This document shows, in pieces, positions 3,983 through 57,763 of a stretch of DNA of 63,357 nt. Made by a program: the position numbers and the translations under genes. Numbering within the stretch: the first letter of the stretch is position 1; every line of letters begins with the position of its first letter. The notes under the pieces are model-generated. The model worked only from the letters and a program-made list of their open reading frames with translations, searched no databases and was not told the origin of the DNA. This DNA is from a virus (taxonomy: Duplodnaviria; Caudoviricetes), in IMG/VR virus record IMGVR_UViG_3300011116_000174, positions 1 through 63,357 of that record. One strand, 5' to 3'.

Positions 3983-4204
3983 TTACCATTTGGACTCGTT
4001 GTAGTCCTCGGGGTCGGTATTGCGTAAGTCCTCGTAATCCACGCAATACGTTTCTATCTCCATGGCAAGGGTAGAATCCTCTGCCAAGTCCTCAGACCAA
4101 TCTTCGACTAGCCCATCGTTCCACACCGCGACAACCCGCCACTCCACAATCTCATACAGATTGCCATTCTCCACATCTTTAACTTCTCTCTTTCTGCGTT
4201 GCAT
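3983..4204 (-). CDS. Small acidic hypothetical protein
   Basis: MQRRKRE start after AAGGAGG; D/E-rich C-terminal half. Confidence 0.7.
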   Translation of the reverse strand: MQRRKREVKDVENGNLYEIVEWRVVAVWNDGLVEDWSEDLAEDSTLAMEIETYCVDYEDLRNTDPEDYNESKW

Positions 4205-4349
4205 AGCACACCTCCTTGTAAAAACCTCAAGCGGACAGACTGTTGCCAATCTGCCCTATGAAATCTCTATTTGTTTGTTTGCCCTCTGCTATTTTCTCGC
4301 AGTCCTGTTTGGGGTTCGGGCATGGGGTGGTTTACTGCGTGTGATTGAA

Positions 4350-4366
4350 ATACTGTCAGACAGTAT
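4350..4366. promoter_or_regulatory. 17-bp palindrome
   Basis: ATACTGTCAGACAGTAT. Confidence 0.8.
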
Positions 4367-4637
4367 GGGTCTGTAATGCACCCTGTATATATAGATAGTC
4401 GGTCTAATGTATTTCCTACAATAAATTACACCCGCAAGGATACTGCTCGGTATTCATTGACTTAGTTTGTCGGCTCTAACGGACTTGCTATTTTGAACTG
4501 GCGATACGCAACTTTGTATCTTTCTTCCGCTACTTACAATGGTCTGTATTCCCATAGCCTTAGCATATAGGCAACTGCAACCTACGCCTACCTTGCACTA
4601 GGATTAACCTAGCGTTCTACATATTGTTAAAGAGCAA

Positions 4638-4654
4638 ATACTGTCAGACAGTAT
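4638..4654. promoter_or_regulatory. 17-bp palindrome
   Basis: CAA-ATACTGTCAGACAGTAT-TTG. Confidence 0.8.
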
Positions 4655-4698
4655 TTGAGTGGCTCGACAACAACTCGCTTTACCCACTCTATAATACT

Positions 4699-4727
4699 AT
4701 TATAAACCTATGTTAGTCCTATGTCAA
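4699..4727 (-). promoter_or_regulatory. Consensus sigma70 promoter
   Basis: TTGACA-17 nt-TATAAT; shares TTGACATAGG...TATAATAGTATTAT with the 2064-2092 promoter. Confidence 0.85.
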
Positions 4728-4793
4728 TACCCCTAACTTGGAAACTTGACAGTCAGCGTCCCGCGAAACTCATTCTATAAAGATGTTTGCCAA

Positions 4794-4810
4794 ATACTGT
4801 CGGACAGTAT
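4794..4810. promoter_or_regulatory. 17-bp palindrome (central G variant)
   Basis: ATACTGTCGGACAGTAT. Confidence 0.8.
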
Positions 4811-15580: not shown

Positions 15581-16153
15581 ATGAACTACCCAAAAACACG
15601 TAAAGAAGCAAAAGAACTAGGGGCTACACACTACTACACAGGGCAACCTTGTTCTCGCGGGCATATAGCTTTGCGTAAAACCAAGGGTGTATGTATAGAG
15701 TGCATGAAAGAAGACTGGGTTAAGGACAACGCCAAACGCGGCTTTAAACCTAAGTCTGAAGCGGCAAAAGAAGCCGGGCGCAGGTATTACGAGCGAAATA
15801 GAGAAATGGTTAAGGCACGCGCGCTTGCTAGAACCCCAGAAGAAAAGAAAGCTTGGAAAAAAACGCATAAGCAACGGCACCCAGAATACTATAACGCACT
15901 AACTAGTTTAAGAAAACGTAGGCACAGAAACGCAACGCCGCCGTGGTTAACCGCAAAACAAAAAACCGAAATTAAACAGCTATATTTAATTGCAATTACT
16001 ATGTCTAATACCACGGGTCAAAGGTATGTAGTAGACCACATAGTTCCTTTACTTGGTAAAGATGTATGTGGACTTCACGTACCTTGGAATATGCAAGTTA
16101 TAACCCAAGAGGAAAACCTCAAAAAGTCAAACAAACTGCTTGCAACTACGTAA
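15581..16153 (+). CDS. HNH homing endonuclease
   Basis: YTGQPC..GH N-terminus; VDHIVPL..VCGLHVPWNMQVI..EN..KSN. Confidence 0.85.
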   Translation: MNYPKTRKEAKELGATHYYTGQPCSRGHIALRKTKGVCIECMKEDWVKDNAKRGFKPKSEAAKEAGRRYYERNREMVKARALARTPEEKKAWKKTHKQRHPEYYNALTSLRKRRHRNATPPWLTAKQKTEIKQLYLIAITMSNTTGQRYVVDHIVPLLGKDVCGLHVPWNMQVITQEENLKKSNKLLATT

Positions 16154-52409: not shown

Positions 52410-52554
52410 TTTTCGCTAATACCGTTAATAGTCTAAGTTCTGCTAGTGTATTTAGTGCATGCTCCTCTGCTTCTTTGTATTCCTTATCTCTCATCGCCTC
52501 TTCGTATAATTTTAAATTTCGTTTTGCCTCTAGTAAAAAAGACGAGTATTCCAT
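52390..52554 (-). CDS. Small hypothetical protein (54 aa)
   Basis: Not in ORF track; MEYSSFLLEAKRNL..., TGATG overlap with the pol stop. Confidence 0.6.
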   Translation of the reverse strand: MEYSSFLLEAKRNLKLYEEAMRDKEYKEAEEHALNTLAELRLLTVLAKNAGQEK

Positions 52555-54395
52555 CAACAATCTCCGTAACTATATCCATAACTTGCTTCACAATTTAAAG
52601 GCAAAGTATCCGCCCACGTTGGTCTCCAACGCATACATTCCATCACGTATTGAAGGGCTTCCTCTTTCTCTTCTTCTTTTGCGATACAGGCAACGGCATC
52701 ATGCACCGTTAAAACTACCCTATATCGTTGGCTTATTTTAATCATTTGTTCAGCAATCACACAACGCGCCACTGCTTGACAAATGTTCTCAATTACTTTA
52801 CCGCCGTAAAGCTTTACCATACCGCGTCTTGTCGGGTATTCAAATTGGGTATTACCCTGAGGGTCTGTAACTTTATCAATACCTTCGTAGCGTTGCCATA
52901 ACCCACTGGGTAATAAAAACCCTGCTTTGTATGGGTCAAATCCAACTACATCAGGCACACCCAAAGAGCATGCTTGCTTAGATATTATGGCGTCTAAGCA
53001 TCTACCCGCTTGTTTCCATAGTTCGGGTATCTTTCCGTAAGTCGCCCGATAAATTTGTATAATGTGGCTCGCTTCATCTTCCGGTATATCGACTCCGAAT
53101 GTTTTAAGTTGGGCTTGGAACTTCTTACCGCCCATGCCGTATCCGGCGCCGAGAATCGTCGTTTTACCCACAAACCTCTCTGCCGTAGATATTTCTGAGA
53201 CATCCTTGCTATATATAGCAGATGCCATGATTTTGTATACGTCCTCGCCATTCTCAAATGCCTCCACCAAATCTGTTTGTCCTGCTAACCACGCAACCGT
53301 TCGCGCTTCAATCTGCGACGAGTCTGCATCAATAACCACATACCCTTCGGGGGCGCATATGGCTTTCTTTAATTTGTTTGCGTTTGCCCCGCGACTAGGT
53401 AAGTTTTGTAGATTAATTTTGTCATCACCGCCCCACCGCCCAGTGTGCGCCGCGTAATATTTAATCGGTACAGGTAACTTCCCACGCTTGGCTATATCAA
53501 TAAAGCGTTGTGTGCGCGTCTCTTCAAGCGTAGTCTTGTTGCCCAATCTTGCTTCGACCAAAGCCTGAACGCGAGGATCAGGATGTGATGCCAGTTGCTT
53601 GAACGCTTCGTCGGTCTTAGCAAATGCCCACGCTTCCTTGCCAGTGCGCGCACTGATCTTTGTAGGGGGGTCTACACCCAAAGACTTTAATATATCTGCA
53701 AACTTCTCGTTTGACATCAGCGTATCTTTGTCTGCCACGCACGCTAGTAGTAGGGCTTCCTTTTTGTTTTTAGTATCCTCTAAGTGTTGCTCAAGTAGTG
53801 GTAGGTTTAGTTCCAGTACCGGTTCAATAAACATCTTTAGAGTTGTGTCGATTACCTTGAGTTCTTTCATAGGAAAGCCACCACCAATCCCAGGCAACAT
53901 AAGTATGTTAAACAACGTGTATGTCAAATCCACATCGTTCCTACAATACTCACCATAGGCATCTATCTCTGACTGGGTAAAGTTGTTACGGCGTTTGCCC
54001 ATAGCATTTATCACTTCCGTGCCTTTTTCGCCGATGTTATAACGTTCAGCTAATACTTTAAGACTACCGCCCGCCTCAACACCATGGGTAGCACGAGCCA
54101 TACAAAGTGTATCGAGCCAACCCTTCGGTTTGATACCATAGCGCCAAGATAAAATAGCGCCATCAAACTGAGTGTTGTGCGCTAGGACTAGGCAGTTCTT
54201 CCAGTCATATAGTTTGGCAAAGCGGGACTCGGTCATGTGTTTGTTGTCATACCAAACAGTTTCGCCGTCGTCTTCTTTCACCGCTACACCGATAACCTCA
54301 AACCGATCATCGCGAATGTACTCCTCGGTCGTCAATCGCGACAAAGAATATTCTCTGTCGTAATACGTTTCAAAATCTACCGTTAATATTTTCAT
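52554..54395 (-). CDS. polA: Family A DNA polymerase with 3'-5' exonuclease
   Basis: DFET, AHN..FD, HTGRW, NLQNLP, DSSQIEAR, RFVGK...LG.GYG, TVHD. Confidence 0.92.
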   Translation of the reverse strand: MKILTVDFETYYDREYSLSRLTTEEYIRDDRFEVIGVAVKEDDGETVWYDNKHMTESRFAKLYDWKNCLVLAHNTQFDGAILSWRYGIKPKGWLDTLCMARATHGVEAGGSLKVLAERYNIGEKGTEVINAMGKRRNNFTQSEIDAYGEYCRNDVDLTYTLFNILMLPGIGGGFPMKELKVIDTTLKMFIEPVLELNLPLLEQHLEDTKNKKEALLLACVADKDTLMSNEKFADILKSLGVDPPTKISARTGKEAWAFAKTDEAFKQLASHPDPRVQALVEARLGNKTTLEETRTQRFIDIAKRGKLPVPIKYYAAHTGRWGGDDKINLQNLPSRGANANKLKKAICAPEGYVVIDADSSQIEARTVAWLAGQTDLVEAFENGEDVYKIMASAIYSKDVSEISTAERFVGKTTILGAGYGMGGKKFQAQLKTFGVDIPEDEASHIIQIYRATYGKIPELWKQAGRCLDAIISKQACSLGVPDVVGFDPYKAGFLLPSGLWQRYEGIDKVTDPQGNTQFEYPTRRGMVKLYGGKVIENICQAVARCVIAEQMIKISQRYRVVLTVHDAVACIAKEEEKEEALQYVMECMRWRPTWADTLPLNCEASYGYSYGDC

Positions 54396-54625
54396 TTGTC
54401 TAACATGTCATCAACAAGGCACTGAGACAATACTTGTGCCAATCCAACCCTATGCGACTTGCGCTCCTCTTGTTCGTCAGTCGTGTAAATAAAAAGAGAG
54501 TCATCTTTGTGCATAGCGATTCCAACAAAGCTAACTATCTCACCATTTTCAAATTCTTTCAATAGGGTTTTCAATGATGAATAAACATCTTCTCGTTTTC
54601 TATTAATTGATACTATATTTGCCAT
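54392..54625 (-). CDS. Hypothetical protein (77 aa)
   Basis: MANIVSIN after AAGGAG, immediately downstream of the array. Confidence 0.7.
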   Translation of the reverse strand: MANIVSINRKREDVYSSLKTLLKEFENGEIVSFVGIAMHKDDSLFIYTTDEQEERKSHRVGLAQVLSQCLVDDMLDK

Positions 54626-54638
54626 TTCTTTTCTCCTT

Positions 54639-55297
54639 GATATCCTCACCCGACCACACCTAGACTCGCATCACCGCACCGTTCCATACCTTACCGAAAA
54701 ATCCATACCATGCCTTACATGACCTTCGCCATACAGCGCCTAGCCGAGCCACGAACTCCTTGCCATAACTCACCCCGCCGTATCGTACCGAACCGAGCCA
54801 TGCCCGAGCGCGAACTCCTTGCCTGACTGAATCCCGCCACTCCTAGCTATAACATGCCGAACCTAGAACTCCGTGTCTTACCAAACTTCGCCGTGCCCGA
54901 CCATGCCGAGCCGTACCGCGCTAGAACCACGATACCCAAACCTTGCCGATCCCAACTTCACCGCACCACACCTCGCCCCGCCTAGTGGGAACCGCAATAC
55001 CCTTGCCAAACCGGGCACGAACTGAACTCACCATGCCCAACCCTGAACTCCTCACTACACCGCACCTTACCCAACCATGCCTCTACTAACCATGAATCCC
55101 TTACCTCACCAGTACAAACCTCGCACCGCCCGACCCGACCTAACCGCATCGCGCATCACCAAAAAATCCATACCGAACCTTTCCTCACCCGACCAGACCC
55201 CGCCGTAGCTAGTCAAGAAGCCCAAGCCTTGCCCTGCCGGATCGGGACAGACCGATCCATGCCGGGACGCGCCATACACTACCGGAGCCTGATGCCC
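54639..55297 (-). ncRNA. Array of 11 putative guide RNAs: (GGY-NN)n pentamer tracts separated by 7-nt GGRNWUY linkers
   Basis: 5-nt periodicity NN-RCC on the + strand; 12 linkers; begins 3 nt after the stop codon of the RAMP-like gene. Confidence 0.85.
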
Positions 55298-55300
55298 TAG

Positions 55301-55912
55301 TTATGCTACTTTTTTGAGTGGCATTTTTACCGCTGCGAACTTTTTAACTTCATAGCGACCATGACGTGGTCTCCAATCGCCGATGCCAACGTAAGAACCC
55401 GCGTCTTCAACCCAACGCTTTAACTGCGCTTCGTTTGCTACGTCTGAGTTAATAGATACTTTGAACTTAGCAGTCCAGTCTTTGAAGTGCGGACGAGTGC
55501 GCATAACCTTTGCCATACCAACACGCACCGCAACACAGATACGATGGTCTTCGCTCTCAACCAACTGATCGACAGTCATTGTTCCGCCTTCGTATGTAAA
55601 CGTAGCATCGGTATCTACAAACATACCTGATAATGCCAATTTACCTTCCTTGCTTTTCTTAGCGCCTTCGACAAGCACCGACTCAAGCACACGACTTGGG
55701 ACAATTACTTCGTTCTTTTTGTTTAGGTATAACCCTGCACGATACTCGATGTTTGCCATAGCTTCATAGTCTGTATCGGTTTTCTTGCGCTTGCTACTAA
55801 TTTCTTTCATAGCTTTGCTAAACGGATTAAGCGGGTCTGCCGTTTGTCCGTTGTGCATAATCAATGAATCACCGCTTAATTCAACTTCATATTGTGTGTA
55901 GCCTTTTGGCAT
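55301..55912 (-). CDS. Cas7/RAMP-like RNA-binding protein (putative guide-RNA filament subunit)
   Basis: N-terminal strand + LIMHN; IVPSRVLESVL..GA helix; RTRPHF..W; C-terminal Gly-rich loop AGSYVGIGDWRPRHGRY; GAGGAG RBS. Confidence 0.75.
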   Translation of the reverse strand: MPKGYTQYEVELSGDSLIMHNGQTADPLNPFSKAMKEISSKRKKTDTDYEAMANIEYRAGLYLNKKNEVIVPSRVLESVLVEGAKKSKEGKLALSGMFVDTDATFTYEGGTMTVDQLVESEDHRICVAVRVGMAKVMRTRPHFKDWTAKFKVSINSDVANEAQLKRWVEDAGSYVGIGDWRPRHGRYEVKKFAAVKMPLKKVA

Positions 55913-55934
55913 GTTACTCTCCTCTTTATTTAAA

Positions 55935-56351
55935 TTATGGACGTCGTGATCGTTTGATCTCTTTCGTCCGCACAGTTTTAGGAACTTTTACCTTCCTCTT
56001 TTTTGGCTTGGAAGATTGTTTTGGTTTAATCTCCCTAGTCAAAACCTTTCGCAACGTCTGATCGCCAAGCGCCCGACGTCTACTTCTAATTGATTCCGTA
56101 ATCCCATCATGACAAGACTCGCATAACATAATCACGTCGTTGATAGTTTCCTCACCCCATGTGTCGTAGTGTCGATGATGTAACTCCATAGCGTATTCTT
56201 CGCTTGACCGCCAACATGTTCCGCACTGATACATTTGTTGTAGCGCTTTTAGGTTACGCAACTGAAACCAATGATCGGGATTTGGGTGGGACTTCGCGGG
56301 ACGTAGGACTTTATGTCCGTCGATCTCCCTAACTCTTTTCAATTGAGTCAT
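55935..56351 (-). CDS. HNH endonuclease with basic C-terminal tail
   Basis: CGTC...ELHHRHY..WGEE...LCESCH. Confidence 0.8.
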   Translation of the reverse strand: MTQLKRVREIDGHKVLRPAKSHPNPDHWFQLRNLKALQQMYQCGTCWRSSEEYAMELHHRHYDTWGEETINDVIMLCESCHDGITESIRSRRRALGDQTLRKVLTREIKPKQSSKPKKRKVKVPKTVRTKEIKRSRRP

Positions 56352-56643
56352 ACTTTAGCCTTCCAAATACTGTTGTACTGCCCAAACTTAACTTTTGGGT
56401 ATGTCTTGCTCTTTTAAGTGCTTCATCAAAAGGGTCATCCTCTTCTGCATGTAACAACTCTTTCATAACATCTCTAGTAAATTCGTCCGCCACTAACTTG
56501 CGTGCTTCATCGGTAAGTGGTTTTAGTTCGTTAGGAATGTATTCGTTATATTCAGCCAAAAGCGGAACCCACCTACCGCCCTTCATAAACTCCTCGGGGT
56601 GTGTCTTGATACGCTCGAGCAATAACCGGACGCCCTCGTTCAT
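56329..56643 (-). CDS. Hypothetical protein
   Basis: LLERIKTHPEEF; coupled. Confidence 0.7.
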   Translation of the reverse strand: MNEGVRLLLERIKTHPEEFMKGGRWVPLLAEYNEYIPNELKPLTDEARKLVADEFTRDVMKELLHAEEDDPFDEALKRARHTQKLSLGSTTVFGRLKYDSIEKS

Positions 56644-56918
56644 AAGATTTCCTCAAGGTCTTTTAGTCTTGCGCCCTCGGTTACATACTTGACCCGAGCA
56701 TCGCTATCGCATGGTGTTAGCTTTACCAATTTCTTTTTGACAAGCTTCTTGGTCAGGCGCGAGTGCAAGTTTGCCGGCGATCCCAAGTGCTTACAGTCTT
56801 CCAACACGTTGGTTACTCGCTCGTTCATACCCACACCAAGCAACATTAAATCAATACTATCTATACCGAACTTGGCATGCACCATGTTTAGTGTGTTCCC
56901 TATTTTTTCTACCTTCAT
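56640..56918 (-). CDS. Winged-helix (MarR-like) protein
   Basis: SPANLHSRL.KKLV..KLV...D.RVKYV. Confidence 0.6.
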   Translation of the reverse strand: MKVEKIGNTLNMVHAKFGIDSIDLMLLGVGMNERVTNVLEDCKHLGSPANLHSRLTKKLVKKKLVKLTPCDSDARVKYVTEGARLKDLEEIL

Positions 56919-57145
56919 CTTACTTTCCTATACTTAATTGGTATTGTGCCGTCCGTATGTAATACAACTTTGCCGTCTTGCAACAACTCTTTTAAATACC
57001 TGCCCGCCGTATACTTATGAACGCGTAGATACTTTGCTACTTCGCTTATTGTTTTTGGGTTTCCCTTTAATAGCCGTAGCACTTGCGCGTGTCTTACGCG
57101 CTTCGGCTCTTTTACGCATTTCGATACCCTTCTTCGCGTTTTCAT
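56915..57145 (-). CDS. Winged HTH protein
   Basis: PKTISEVAKYLRVHKYTAGRYLKELLQDGKV. Confidence 0.65.
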   Translation of the reverse strand: MKTRRRVSKCVKEPKRVRHAQVLRLLKGNPKTISEVAKYLRVHKYTAGRYLKELLQDGKVVLHTDGTIPIKYRKVR

Positions 57146-57281
57146 TTTGTTTTAGGTAATCCTTAATAATTGCTATAAATCCCTCTTGCACTAGAAACTG
57201 CAAGCCCTCTTTATCAAAGTCAAGCGTAACAACCCCCGACCCATCTTTGTTTTCTCTAACCATCGTGGCTTCAATTTTCAC
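57015..57281 (-). CDS. Hypothetical protein
   Basis: GTG start after GAGGAG; ENKDGS...LDFD. Confidence 0.6.
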   Translation of the reverse strand: MKIEATMVRENKDGSGVVTLDFDKEGLQFLVQEGFIAIIKDYLKQNENAKKGIEMRKRAEARKTRASATAIKGKPKNNKRSSKVSTRS

Positions 57282-57540
57282 GTTTTCTCCTCTCGATTTC
57301 TCGTTTAACATACCAAACTGCTTTTTCCAAATCCTCAATCGCATCGCCTTTTAAGTCGGCGCGCCATATGTATTTCATCGCGTTGCCCAAACAAAAACTC
57401 ATGTGTTCTGTAATTTGTATACAGTCAATCCCACTGGGGTGCGACGTGTAATGCTTGGGATTATTTACGTTGTCAATAACCGCGTCTTCATAGCCCGGAT
57501 GATATGGTGCTTCTTCAACTTTTTTTTGATATTCATTCAT
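57271..57540 (-). CDS. DUF3310 (SaV-like) protein
   Basis: VNNPKHY...FCLGNAMKYIWRA..K...EDLEKA.WY. Confidence 0.85.
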   Translation of the reverse strand: MNEYQKKVEEAPYHPGYEDAVIDNVNNPKHYTSHPSGIDCIQITEHMSFCLGNAMKYIWRADLKGDAIEDLEKAVWYVKREIERRKREN

Positions 57541-57763
57541 TTGATTTTTGTTCTTTCAACTTTGATTTTAAAACTTTGTTTTCCATAATTAGGTGGTCAA
57601 TTATTTTGAGATGTTCGGCGTGCCGGTCTTCCATTACTTTGACCATTCTTTCAAATTGATGTTGCCAACCCTGCATACTCGAGACTAACTGTTTAGAGTG
57701 ATACCAAACAAAGTCTTTAGTGATGCCCTCTACTGTTACGTTGTCTTTTATTTCATCAATCAT
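57533..57763 (-). CDS. Hypothetical protein
   Basis: Coupled ORF. Confidence 0.65.
   Translation of the reverse strand: MIDEIKDNVTVEGITKDFVWYHSKQLVSSMQGWQHQFERMVKVMEDRHAEHLKIIDHLIMENKVLKSKLKEQKSNE

Follow-up and report, generated by a model that had tools for sequence, protein, structure and literature searches.

The virus genome analysed here (IMG/VR record IMGVR_UViG_3300011116_000174; the window, which comprises all 63,357 nt of the record and is 100% complete by CheckV) carries a VIPR locus in which a gene for an HNH nuclease directly precedes vipr and a long array of guide RNAs. In our reading, to which we assign a probability of roughly 0.6, the HNH protein is the accessory nuclease (Vap) of a phage-borne VIPR system: the target-bound filament would recruit or activate the HNH, rival DNA would be cut, and silencing would be turned into destruction. 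The partnership of HNH and Vipr emerges from comparative genomics, while we infer that the protein cuts, that it does so under the control of guides and whose DNA it attacks.

VIPR (Viral Interference Programmable Repeat) is a CRISPR-like, RNA-guided phage system that was first described in 2026 (10.64898/2026.04.26.720920). According to this preprint, Vipr is a minimal RAMP, and its guides, the vrRNAs, consist of 9-16 YNNGG repeats; the NN dinucleotides serve to read double-stranded DNA, one base being skipped at each repeat. In type II, the tested system, Vipr protomers polymerise on each vrRNA with the GGY triplets hidden and the NN dinucleotides presented, and the transcription of rival elements is silenced (10.64898/2026.04.26.720920). 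The resulting assembly is described as a right-handed filament on the vrRNA and as an R-loop triplex on the target (10.64898/2026.04.26.720927). In the accessible text, binding and silencing of DNA are the only activities demonstrated for VIPR to date.

Seven VIPR types with the accessory genes vap1-6 have been distinguished, and types III-V encode predicted nucleases or helicases. The predicted nucleases are limited to types III and V, both described as enriched in cellular defence islands, and some nuclease-bearing types encode a single vrRNA (10.64898/2026.04.26.720920). The authors read the predicted nucleases as a means of target destruction, name an HNH domain among the accessory genes in the legend of their fig. 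S21, and propose that the nuclease arm arose after capture by hosts (10.64898/2026.04.26.720920). The idea of an HNH as VIPR effector is thus no longer new, since HNH is already among the predicted nuclease accessory genes listed in the discovery preprint. By the authors' account it "remains unclear" by what means accessory nucleases or helicases sense the triplex filament (10.64898/2026.04.26.720927). The accessible parts of the three VIPR preprints (10.64898/2026.04.26.720920, 10.64898/2026.04.26.720927 and 10.64898/2026.10.15.759431) report no experiment with a nuclease Vap; they mention HNH a single time, in the legend of fig. S21, and contain no test of an HNH Vap.

Features of the VIPR locus in the window, in the order of transcription
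Feature	Position	Strand	Basis
HNH nuclease gene, vap-type accessory of the VIPR locus	55935..56351	-	Pfam, conserved residues, AF2 model
Spacer between HNH stop and vipr start, 22 nt	55913..55934	-	Shine-Dalgarno-like purine run
vipr gene, Cas7-like RAMP protein, 203 aa	55301..55912	-	PHROG, fold, PDB 36pp_D profile match
vrRNA array, 661 nt, about 125 NNGGY steps	54640..55300	-	GG periodicity, parse into units

The protein encoded downstream of the HNH gene belongs to phrog_4652 (E 6.6e-51); no Pfam family matched it, and none of the at least 784 proteins in its family bears an informative name. Its AF2 model reached a pLDDT of 91. The top Foldseek matches listed for this model were all Cas7-type RAMPs (type VII Cas7, Cmr4, Csm3; E about 1e-5, TM about 0.5), and an independent all-against-representatives structure search (VIA) likewise returned Cas7-type proteins as its top 14 matches (Z 11.0-8.5, 130-162 aligned residues). 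The initial annotation, which had called the gene RAMP-like, was therefore right in its label. The gene can now be named vipr: its profile matched the SUSP1 Vipr protein (PDB 36pp_D) with an E value of 2.6e-43 over residues 8-192, a shared GDWRPR-GR loop included, and its product is about 33% identical to the Felixounavirus homologues.

The array starts directly downstream of vipr, holds no long open reading frame and is 42% G on the transcribed strand. Spacings between its GG dinucleotides peaked at 5, 10, 15 and 20 nt, and 184 GG pairs were on phase versus 76.8 +/- 11.5 (maximum 121) in 500 shuffles. GG was followed by a pyrimidine 79 times out of 93 (T 47, C 32, A 14). Dynamic programming parsed the tract into about 125 NNGGY steps, 87 of them with GG, and into 9 or more units of about 49-59 nt. 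At most unit ends a short junction recurs, GGA and then GTTC or TTTT, and more such junctions are probably concealed in a block of 35 steps that stay in phase (55044-54870). It may be at these junctions that a 'staggered' array is processed. VIPR loci are recognised on sequence by a homologue of SUSP1 Vipr, a minimal RAMP that has an RRM core and a glycine-rich loop, with at least four YNNGG units on the same strand beside vipr, and both were found here. Since the match to SUSP1 Vipr and the Cas7-like fold coincide with an adjoining GGY/NN array, we regard HNH, vipr and the vrRNA array as one VIPR system.

When the array was compared with those of phages whose Vipr is 94-100% identical (L017, L019, L020, L007 and L023), it proved mosaic and hypervariable, with indels and replaced blocks, and the GG phase was kept throughout. 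This pattern fits guides under diversifying selection. Low-depth metatranscriptome contigs (2-5x) covered parts of the array, vipr and, in one run, the HNH gene, and contigs from three runs of two studies covered the array part 54712-55055, again at low depth; in both cases DNA carry-over is possible. A promoter and terminator scan of 54300-57700 gave nothing above shuffles that delimits the array, no Rfam family was matched in 54300-56400 up to an E value of 1, and blastn of 54300-57200 against named phages returned no match. Three other explanations of the G-rich tract, an R-loop replication origin, a TRAP- or CsrA-like protein sponge and G-quadruplex repeats, were dropped, because the Vipr match and the preprints account for the 5-nt period. 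Between the array and the DNA polymerase A gene lies an 85-aa ORF (54392-54649, - strand) with no tblastn match in 16 related loci, even those with a 100% identical Vipr; the related loci carry a different ORF in its place.

The putative nuclease itself, a protein of 138 aa, matched the Pfam family HNH (PF01844, E 1.2e-5, 25.8 bits versus a cut-off of 21.4) and several PHROG families of HNH endonucleases. Its core had been described in the initial annotation as intact, and it reads C43-x2-C46, H58-H59 and C77-x2-C80-H81. In an alignment of 27 diverse homologues (mean column identity 28%; identity to the protein of the window 18-75%), the residues W28, C43, C46, H58, H59, Y62, D72, C77, C80, H81, R89 and R92 were invariant. 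By our reading of the residue roles, these comprise the four zinc-binding cysteines and the HH...D...H catalytic set of a beta-beta-alpha-metal nuclease. An AF2 model based on the 27 homologues (overall pLDDT 84) predicted a folded core at residues 1-100 with pLDDT above 90, including strands at 55-59 and 73-77 followed by a helix at 78-94, in contrast to a disordered tail (100-138, pLDDT about 57). The K/R-rich tail reported earlier was confirmed: it holds 18 K/R within its 39 residues. The gene is a genuine HNH nuclease gene whose catalytic and zinc-binding core is intact.

The same residues bear on the possibility that the HNH binds DNA without cutting it, as a helper that reinforces silencing in the manner of type II vap1. 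There is precedent for such a helper: SUSP1 needs both Vipr and Vap1 against its satellite (10.64898/2026.10.15.759431), and its accessory protein enhances protection without any nuclease domain (10.64898/2026.04.26.720920; 10.64898/2026.10.15.759431). The basic tail of the HNH would also be expected to bind nucleic acid. However, H58, H59, D72 and H81 are invariant among proteins of only 18-75% identity, which would not be expected of a purely structural zinc finger, and we consider this explanation unlikely.

Among solved structures, the best relative of the HNH profile was the HNH domain of Cas5-HNH ("CasD") from a type I-E HNH Cascade (E 1.5e-7), followed by IscB (E 1.2e-6) and then by a group II intron maturase, a nicking endonuclease and McrA. 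Foldseek also placed Cas5-HNH first for the AF2 model, albeit weakly (E 0.03, 22-24% identity). In the two nearest solved relatives, those of Cas5-HNH Cascade and IscB, the HNH domain serves an RNA-guided DNA cutter. The likeness to HNH-linked type I Cascades that had been suggested for this gene is borne out in that its closest solved relative is a type I-E Cas5-HNH domain. Likewise, the gene differs, as had been noted, from the ORF at 15581-16153 (+ strand), which had been taken for a homing-type HNH. That ORF matched no Pfam family, and its best named PHROG match was phrog_1035, 'endonuclease VII' (E 3.8e-15), a different type of nuclease; it sits among structural genes.

HNH enzymes are mainly DNases, which is of importance for a further alternative: the HNH might cleave a long, continuous vrRNA precursor at the junctions between units to release single guides, in which case it would act in guide biogenesis and not as an effector. 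Loci of the HNH type do have long, uninterrupted arrays of about 500-900 nt, most units of the array terminate in the recurring short junction, and because Rfam revealed no ribozyme between the units and no pseudoknot tail of the type II style was seen, some nuclease must make the guide ends. Yet the nearest solved relatives of this HNH cut DNA, and we hold a role in guide processing to be improbable, with about one chance in ten.

The initial annotation had pointed out that the HNH gene ends 22 nt upstream of the RAMP-like gene on the same strand, which is the distance between its stop codon and the ATG of vipr, and had proposed co-occurrence with RAMP homologues as a check. This linkage turned out to be strong in both directions. 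On the Vipr side, we analysed the best 80 of 268 IMG/VR stretches with a relative (Vipr 43-100% identical), using an HMM built from 10 upstream HNH ORFs and counting matches on the same strand that lie directly upstream of vipr or overlap its start. An HNH of this subfamily was found in 70 of these 80 viral loci (best 80 of 268), and the HMM alignments extended beyond the basic tail and covered the true core. The viral loci without an upstream HNH were L029, L030, L040, L041, L059, L062, L063, L065, L073 and L036, the last of which is cut at vipr. L040, L041 and L059 share with Felixounavirus wV8 and Pseudomonas phage Medea1 the type II arrangement, in which a protein of about 150 aa is encoded behind vipr. 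In L029 and L030, vipr falls inside the HNH clade described below and has neither an HNH nor a G-rich tract. The next ORF (4094-4795) encodes 233 aa and matches an RNase H-like domain (PF13482, E 9.3e-6); it may, judging from this domain match, be an alternative accessory nuclease.

Cellular genomes were scanned with the Vipr alignment. Among the 63 loci found in species-representative bacterial and archaeal genomes, 38 carried the HNH directly upstream of vipr and 2 carried a weaker HNH match just downstream instead (L238 and L240, from Chloroflexi-type genomes; E 1e-7 and 2e-5); of those left, 6 are truncated near vipr. The flanks of three cellular HNH-VIPR loci gave a Pfam match for 1 of 10 ORFs, a phage integrase, which does not distinguish a prophage from a defence island. 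On the HNH side, vipr lay directly downstream of the HNH in every one of the 80 loci analysed (best 80 of 140 IMG/VR stretches with an HNH relative), and a period-5 G-rich tract followed vipr in 71 of the 78 loci with 400 nt of downstream DNA. In the others (L122-L125, L127, L130 and L131) HNH and vipr are present, the vipr ORF is longer and no period-5 tract occurs within 400 nt; any array there lies elsewhere or has been lost.

For a pooled analysis we used de-duplicated, full-length Vipr sequences with at least 450 nt of upstream DNA (n=136). An HNH accompanied 110 of these 136 (viral 75/82, a share inflated by the 80 loci fetched from the HNH side; cellular 35/51; named phages 0/3). In a quick maximum-likelihood tree with several long branches, all 110 HNH-linked sequences fell into a single clade of 123 (SH-aLRT 94), separate from the vap1-type phages, an actinobacterial clade and two long archaeal/Bacteroidota branches. 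The HNH label required 10 changes on this tree versus 24.2 in shuffles, none of 500 shuffles being as low. Pairwise distances of Vipr and HNH correlated with r 0.92 over 110 pairs, a value that none of 500 permutations reached. As physical linkage alone produces co-divergence, the tree and the correlation exclude independent mobility and do not prove a protein contact. Co-folding of Vipr and HNH from alignments gave a score of 0.00, which speaks neither for nor against binding. Among the closest relatives with upstream DNA the HNH was present in 14 of 14, and while the other upstream ORFs change, the HNH-vipr pair stays. Nonetheless, 13 of the 123 members of the HNH clade lack an HNH and the seven loci above lack an array within 400 nt, so that the three parts are separable. 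Taken together, genome comparison gives good support to the HNH as a fixed companion of vipr and no passenger.

Free-standing HNH genes are common in phages, and a selfish homing endonuclease that adjoins vipr by chance was also considered. Such an element would be consistent with the faster evolution of the HNH (mean distance 0.32 versus 0.20 for Vipr in moderately diverged pairs). It is at odds with the position, strand and order that are fixed in the viral, cellular and HNH-side loci counted above, with the co-divergence of the two proteins, and with the close relatives, among which no sporadic presence and absence was seen. We regard homing as very improbable, the least probable of the explanations weighed here.

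Nor is it probable that the HNH serves the replication, recombination or packaging of the phage itself and adjoins vipr through a shared early or replication module. The locus does lie between early genes and DNA polymerase A (52554-54395), and many relatives are also located near ORFs of polymerase or helicase size. On the other hand, the complete linkage on the HNH side (best 80 of 140) holds across very different flanks, and the linkage recurs in bacterial genomes. Packaging-associated phage HNH proteins of the HK97 gp74 type adjoin terminase and portal genes; here the gene for the large terminase subunit (PF17289, 7890-9416) is about 46 kb from the HNH and on the other strand, and we rejected this candidate. 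All told, we see only a slight chance of a function in the phage's own DNA metabolism.

Upstream of the HNH gene and in the same operon lie three small ORFs (56329-57145, - strand) of 104 aa, 92 aa and 76 aa. The 76-aa product is a MarR-like winged helix, and the ORF of 104 aa shares 23 nt with the start of the HNH gene. Since the three ORFs are kept only in the closest relatives (L001-L009) and not in L010-L014, they stand outside the conserved module. The junction between HNH and vipr also varies. In the clade of the window the two genes are separate and 1-83 nt apart, while in distant relatives (L032, L035, L044-L093 and others) the HNH ORF runs 65-209 nt into the vipr start in another frame. 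A conserved motif in the HNH tail of these distant relatives overlies the most conserved part of vipr and may thus be a by-product of dual coding.

We return to the HNH as accessory nuclease of VIPR, for which the following course of events can be proposed. The array would be transcribed with the operon and would yield roughly 12 vrRNAs. These would load onto Vipr, which, by the precedent of type II, would polymerise on each of them, and the filament would find DNA by the gapped NN code, again as in type II. Once bound to its target, the filament would recruit or activate the HNH, perhaps through the basic tail of the latter, and the HNH would nick or cut the DNA to which the filament is bound, be it from a rival phage, satellite or prophage. 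The initial interpretation of the HNH as an effector of the guide complex is thereby supported as a candidate role, in which cutting would depend on the guides.

A wider reading is more tentative, and we would sooner bet against it than for it. The nuclease-armed form of VIPR could primarily be a phage weapon, in which a free-standing HNH docks on the target-bound triplex filament and cuts the DNA of rival phages. The HNH-Vipr pairing would be old and common to phages and cells, and the same HNH lineage may later have fused into type I-E Cas5. If the pairing is old and shared in this way, the nuclease arm would not have arisen solely after capture by hosts, contrary to what the discovery preprint proposes. 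Whichever way this falls out, a complete phage genome here yields a compact example, with a 138-aa HNH, a 203-aa Vipr and about 12 guides, and it bears on the question whether DNA cutting can be directed by an RNA guide that is not contiguous. The broad occurrence of the HNH-Vipr pair in phages and the kinship between this HNH and the Cas5-HNH domain bear on how nucleases joined RAMP filaments at the origin of CRISPR.

Among known systems, the type II VIPR of Escherichia phage SUSP1 (Vipr, vap1 and vrRNAs; PDB 36pp) shares with the locus a homologous Vipr, guides made of GGY/NN pentamers on the same strand and a minimal, phage-borne layout with one accessory gene. The accessory gene differs, being an HNH upstream of vipr here and a DNA-binding protein of about 150 aa downstream of it in type II (wV8 gp095, phrog_5926). 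The array also differs: it is one continuous tract here, whereas type II encodes its vrRNAs separately, a few in number, each about 100 nt long with a pseudoknot as its tail. In Escherichia phage wV8 (L094) we observed GGT-type pentamer tracts of about 11 units at 2650-2870 and 4050-4260; they flank vipr (gp096) and the 146-aa gp095, coincide in part with the 'DR_4' repeats of the record's annotation and evidently represent the vrRNAs of type II.

The nuclease-bearing VIPR types III and V resemble the locus in their combination of Vipr, vrRNA and a predicted nuclease as accessory gene. The setting is different, a complete 63-kb phage here and an enrichment in cellular defence islands for the nuclease types of the preprint, and so is the number of guides, about 12 here versus a single vrRNA in some of those types. 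Among viral Vipr sequences the HNH is moreover frequent, at the inflated share of 75/82 given above. Going by the legend of fig. S21, the HNH-bearing type is most likely type III, but the assignment of this locus to a type is uncertain, because its phage setting and long array depart from the type description in the accessible part of the preprint.

A third comparison concerns the HNH-linked Cascades with type I-E Cas5-HNH or type I-F Cas8-HNH (8yb6, 8yha, 8zlu, 8ydb), in which, too, an HNH goes together with an RNA-guided filament of Cas7 type. Their HNH forms a fused part of Cas5 or Cas8 within a multi-subunit complex, whereas here it is a separate protein, and in place of a CRISPR array with contiguous guides the locus has a non-contiguous guide code and no Cas5, Cas6 or Cas8. 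A class 1 CRISPR-Cas system was rejected for the locus itself: repeats in the region are of pentamer scale only, with no TRF array and no Rfam CRISPR repeat family, and the neighbours are unrelated small ORFs and the MarR-like HTH, with no further Cas subunits. The comparison with HNH-linked Cascades nevertheless fits, because among solved structures the Cas5-HNH domain comes closest to this HNH, first in both sequence and fold. This likeness rests on a small domain and is closer than mere functional analogy.
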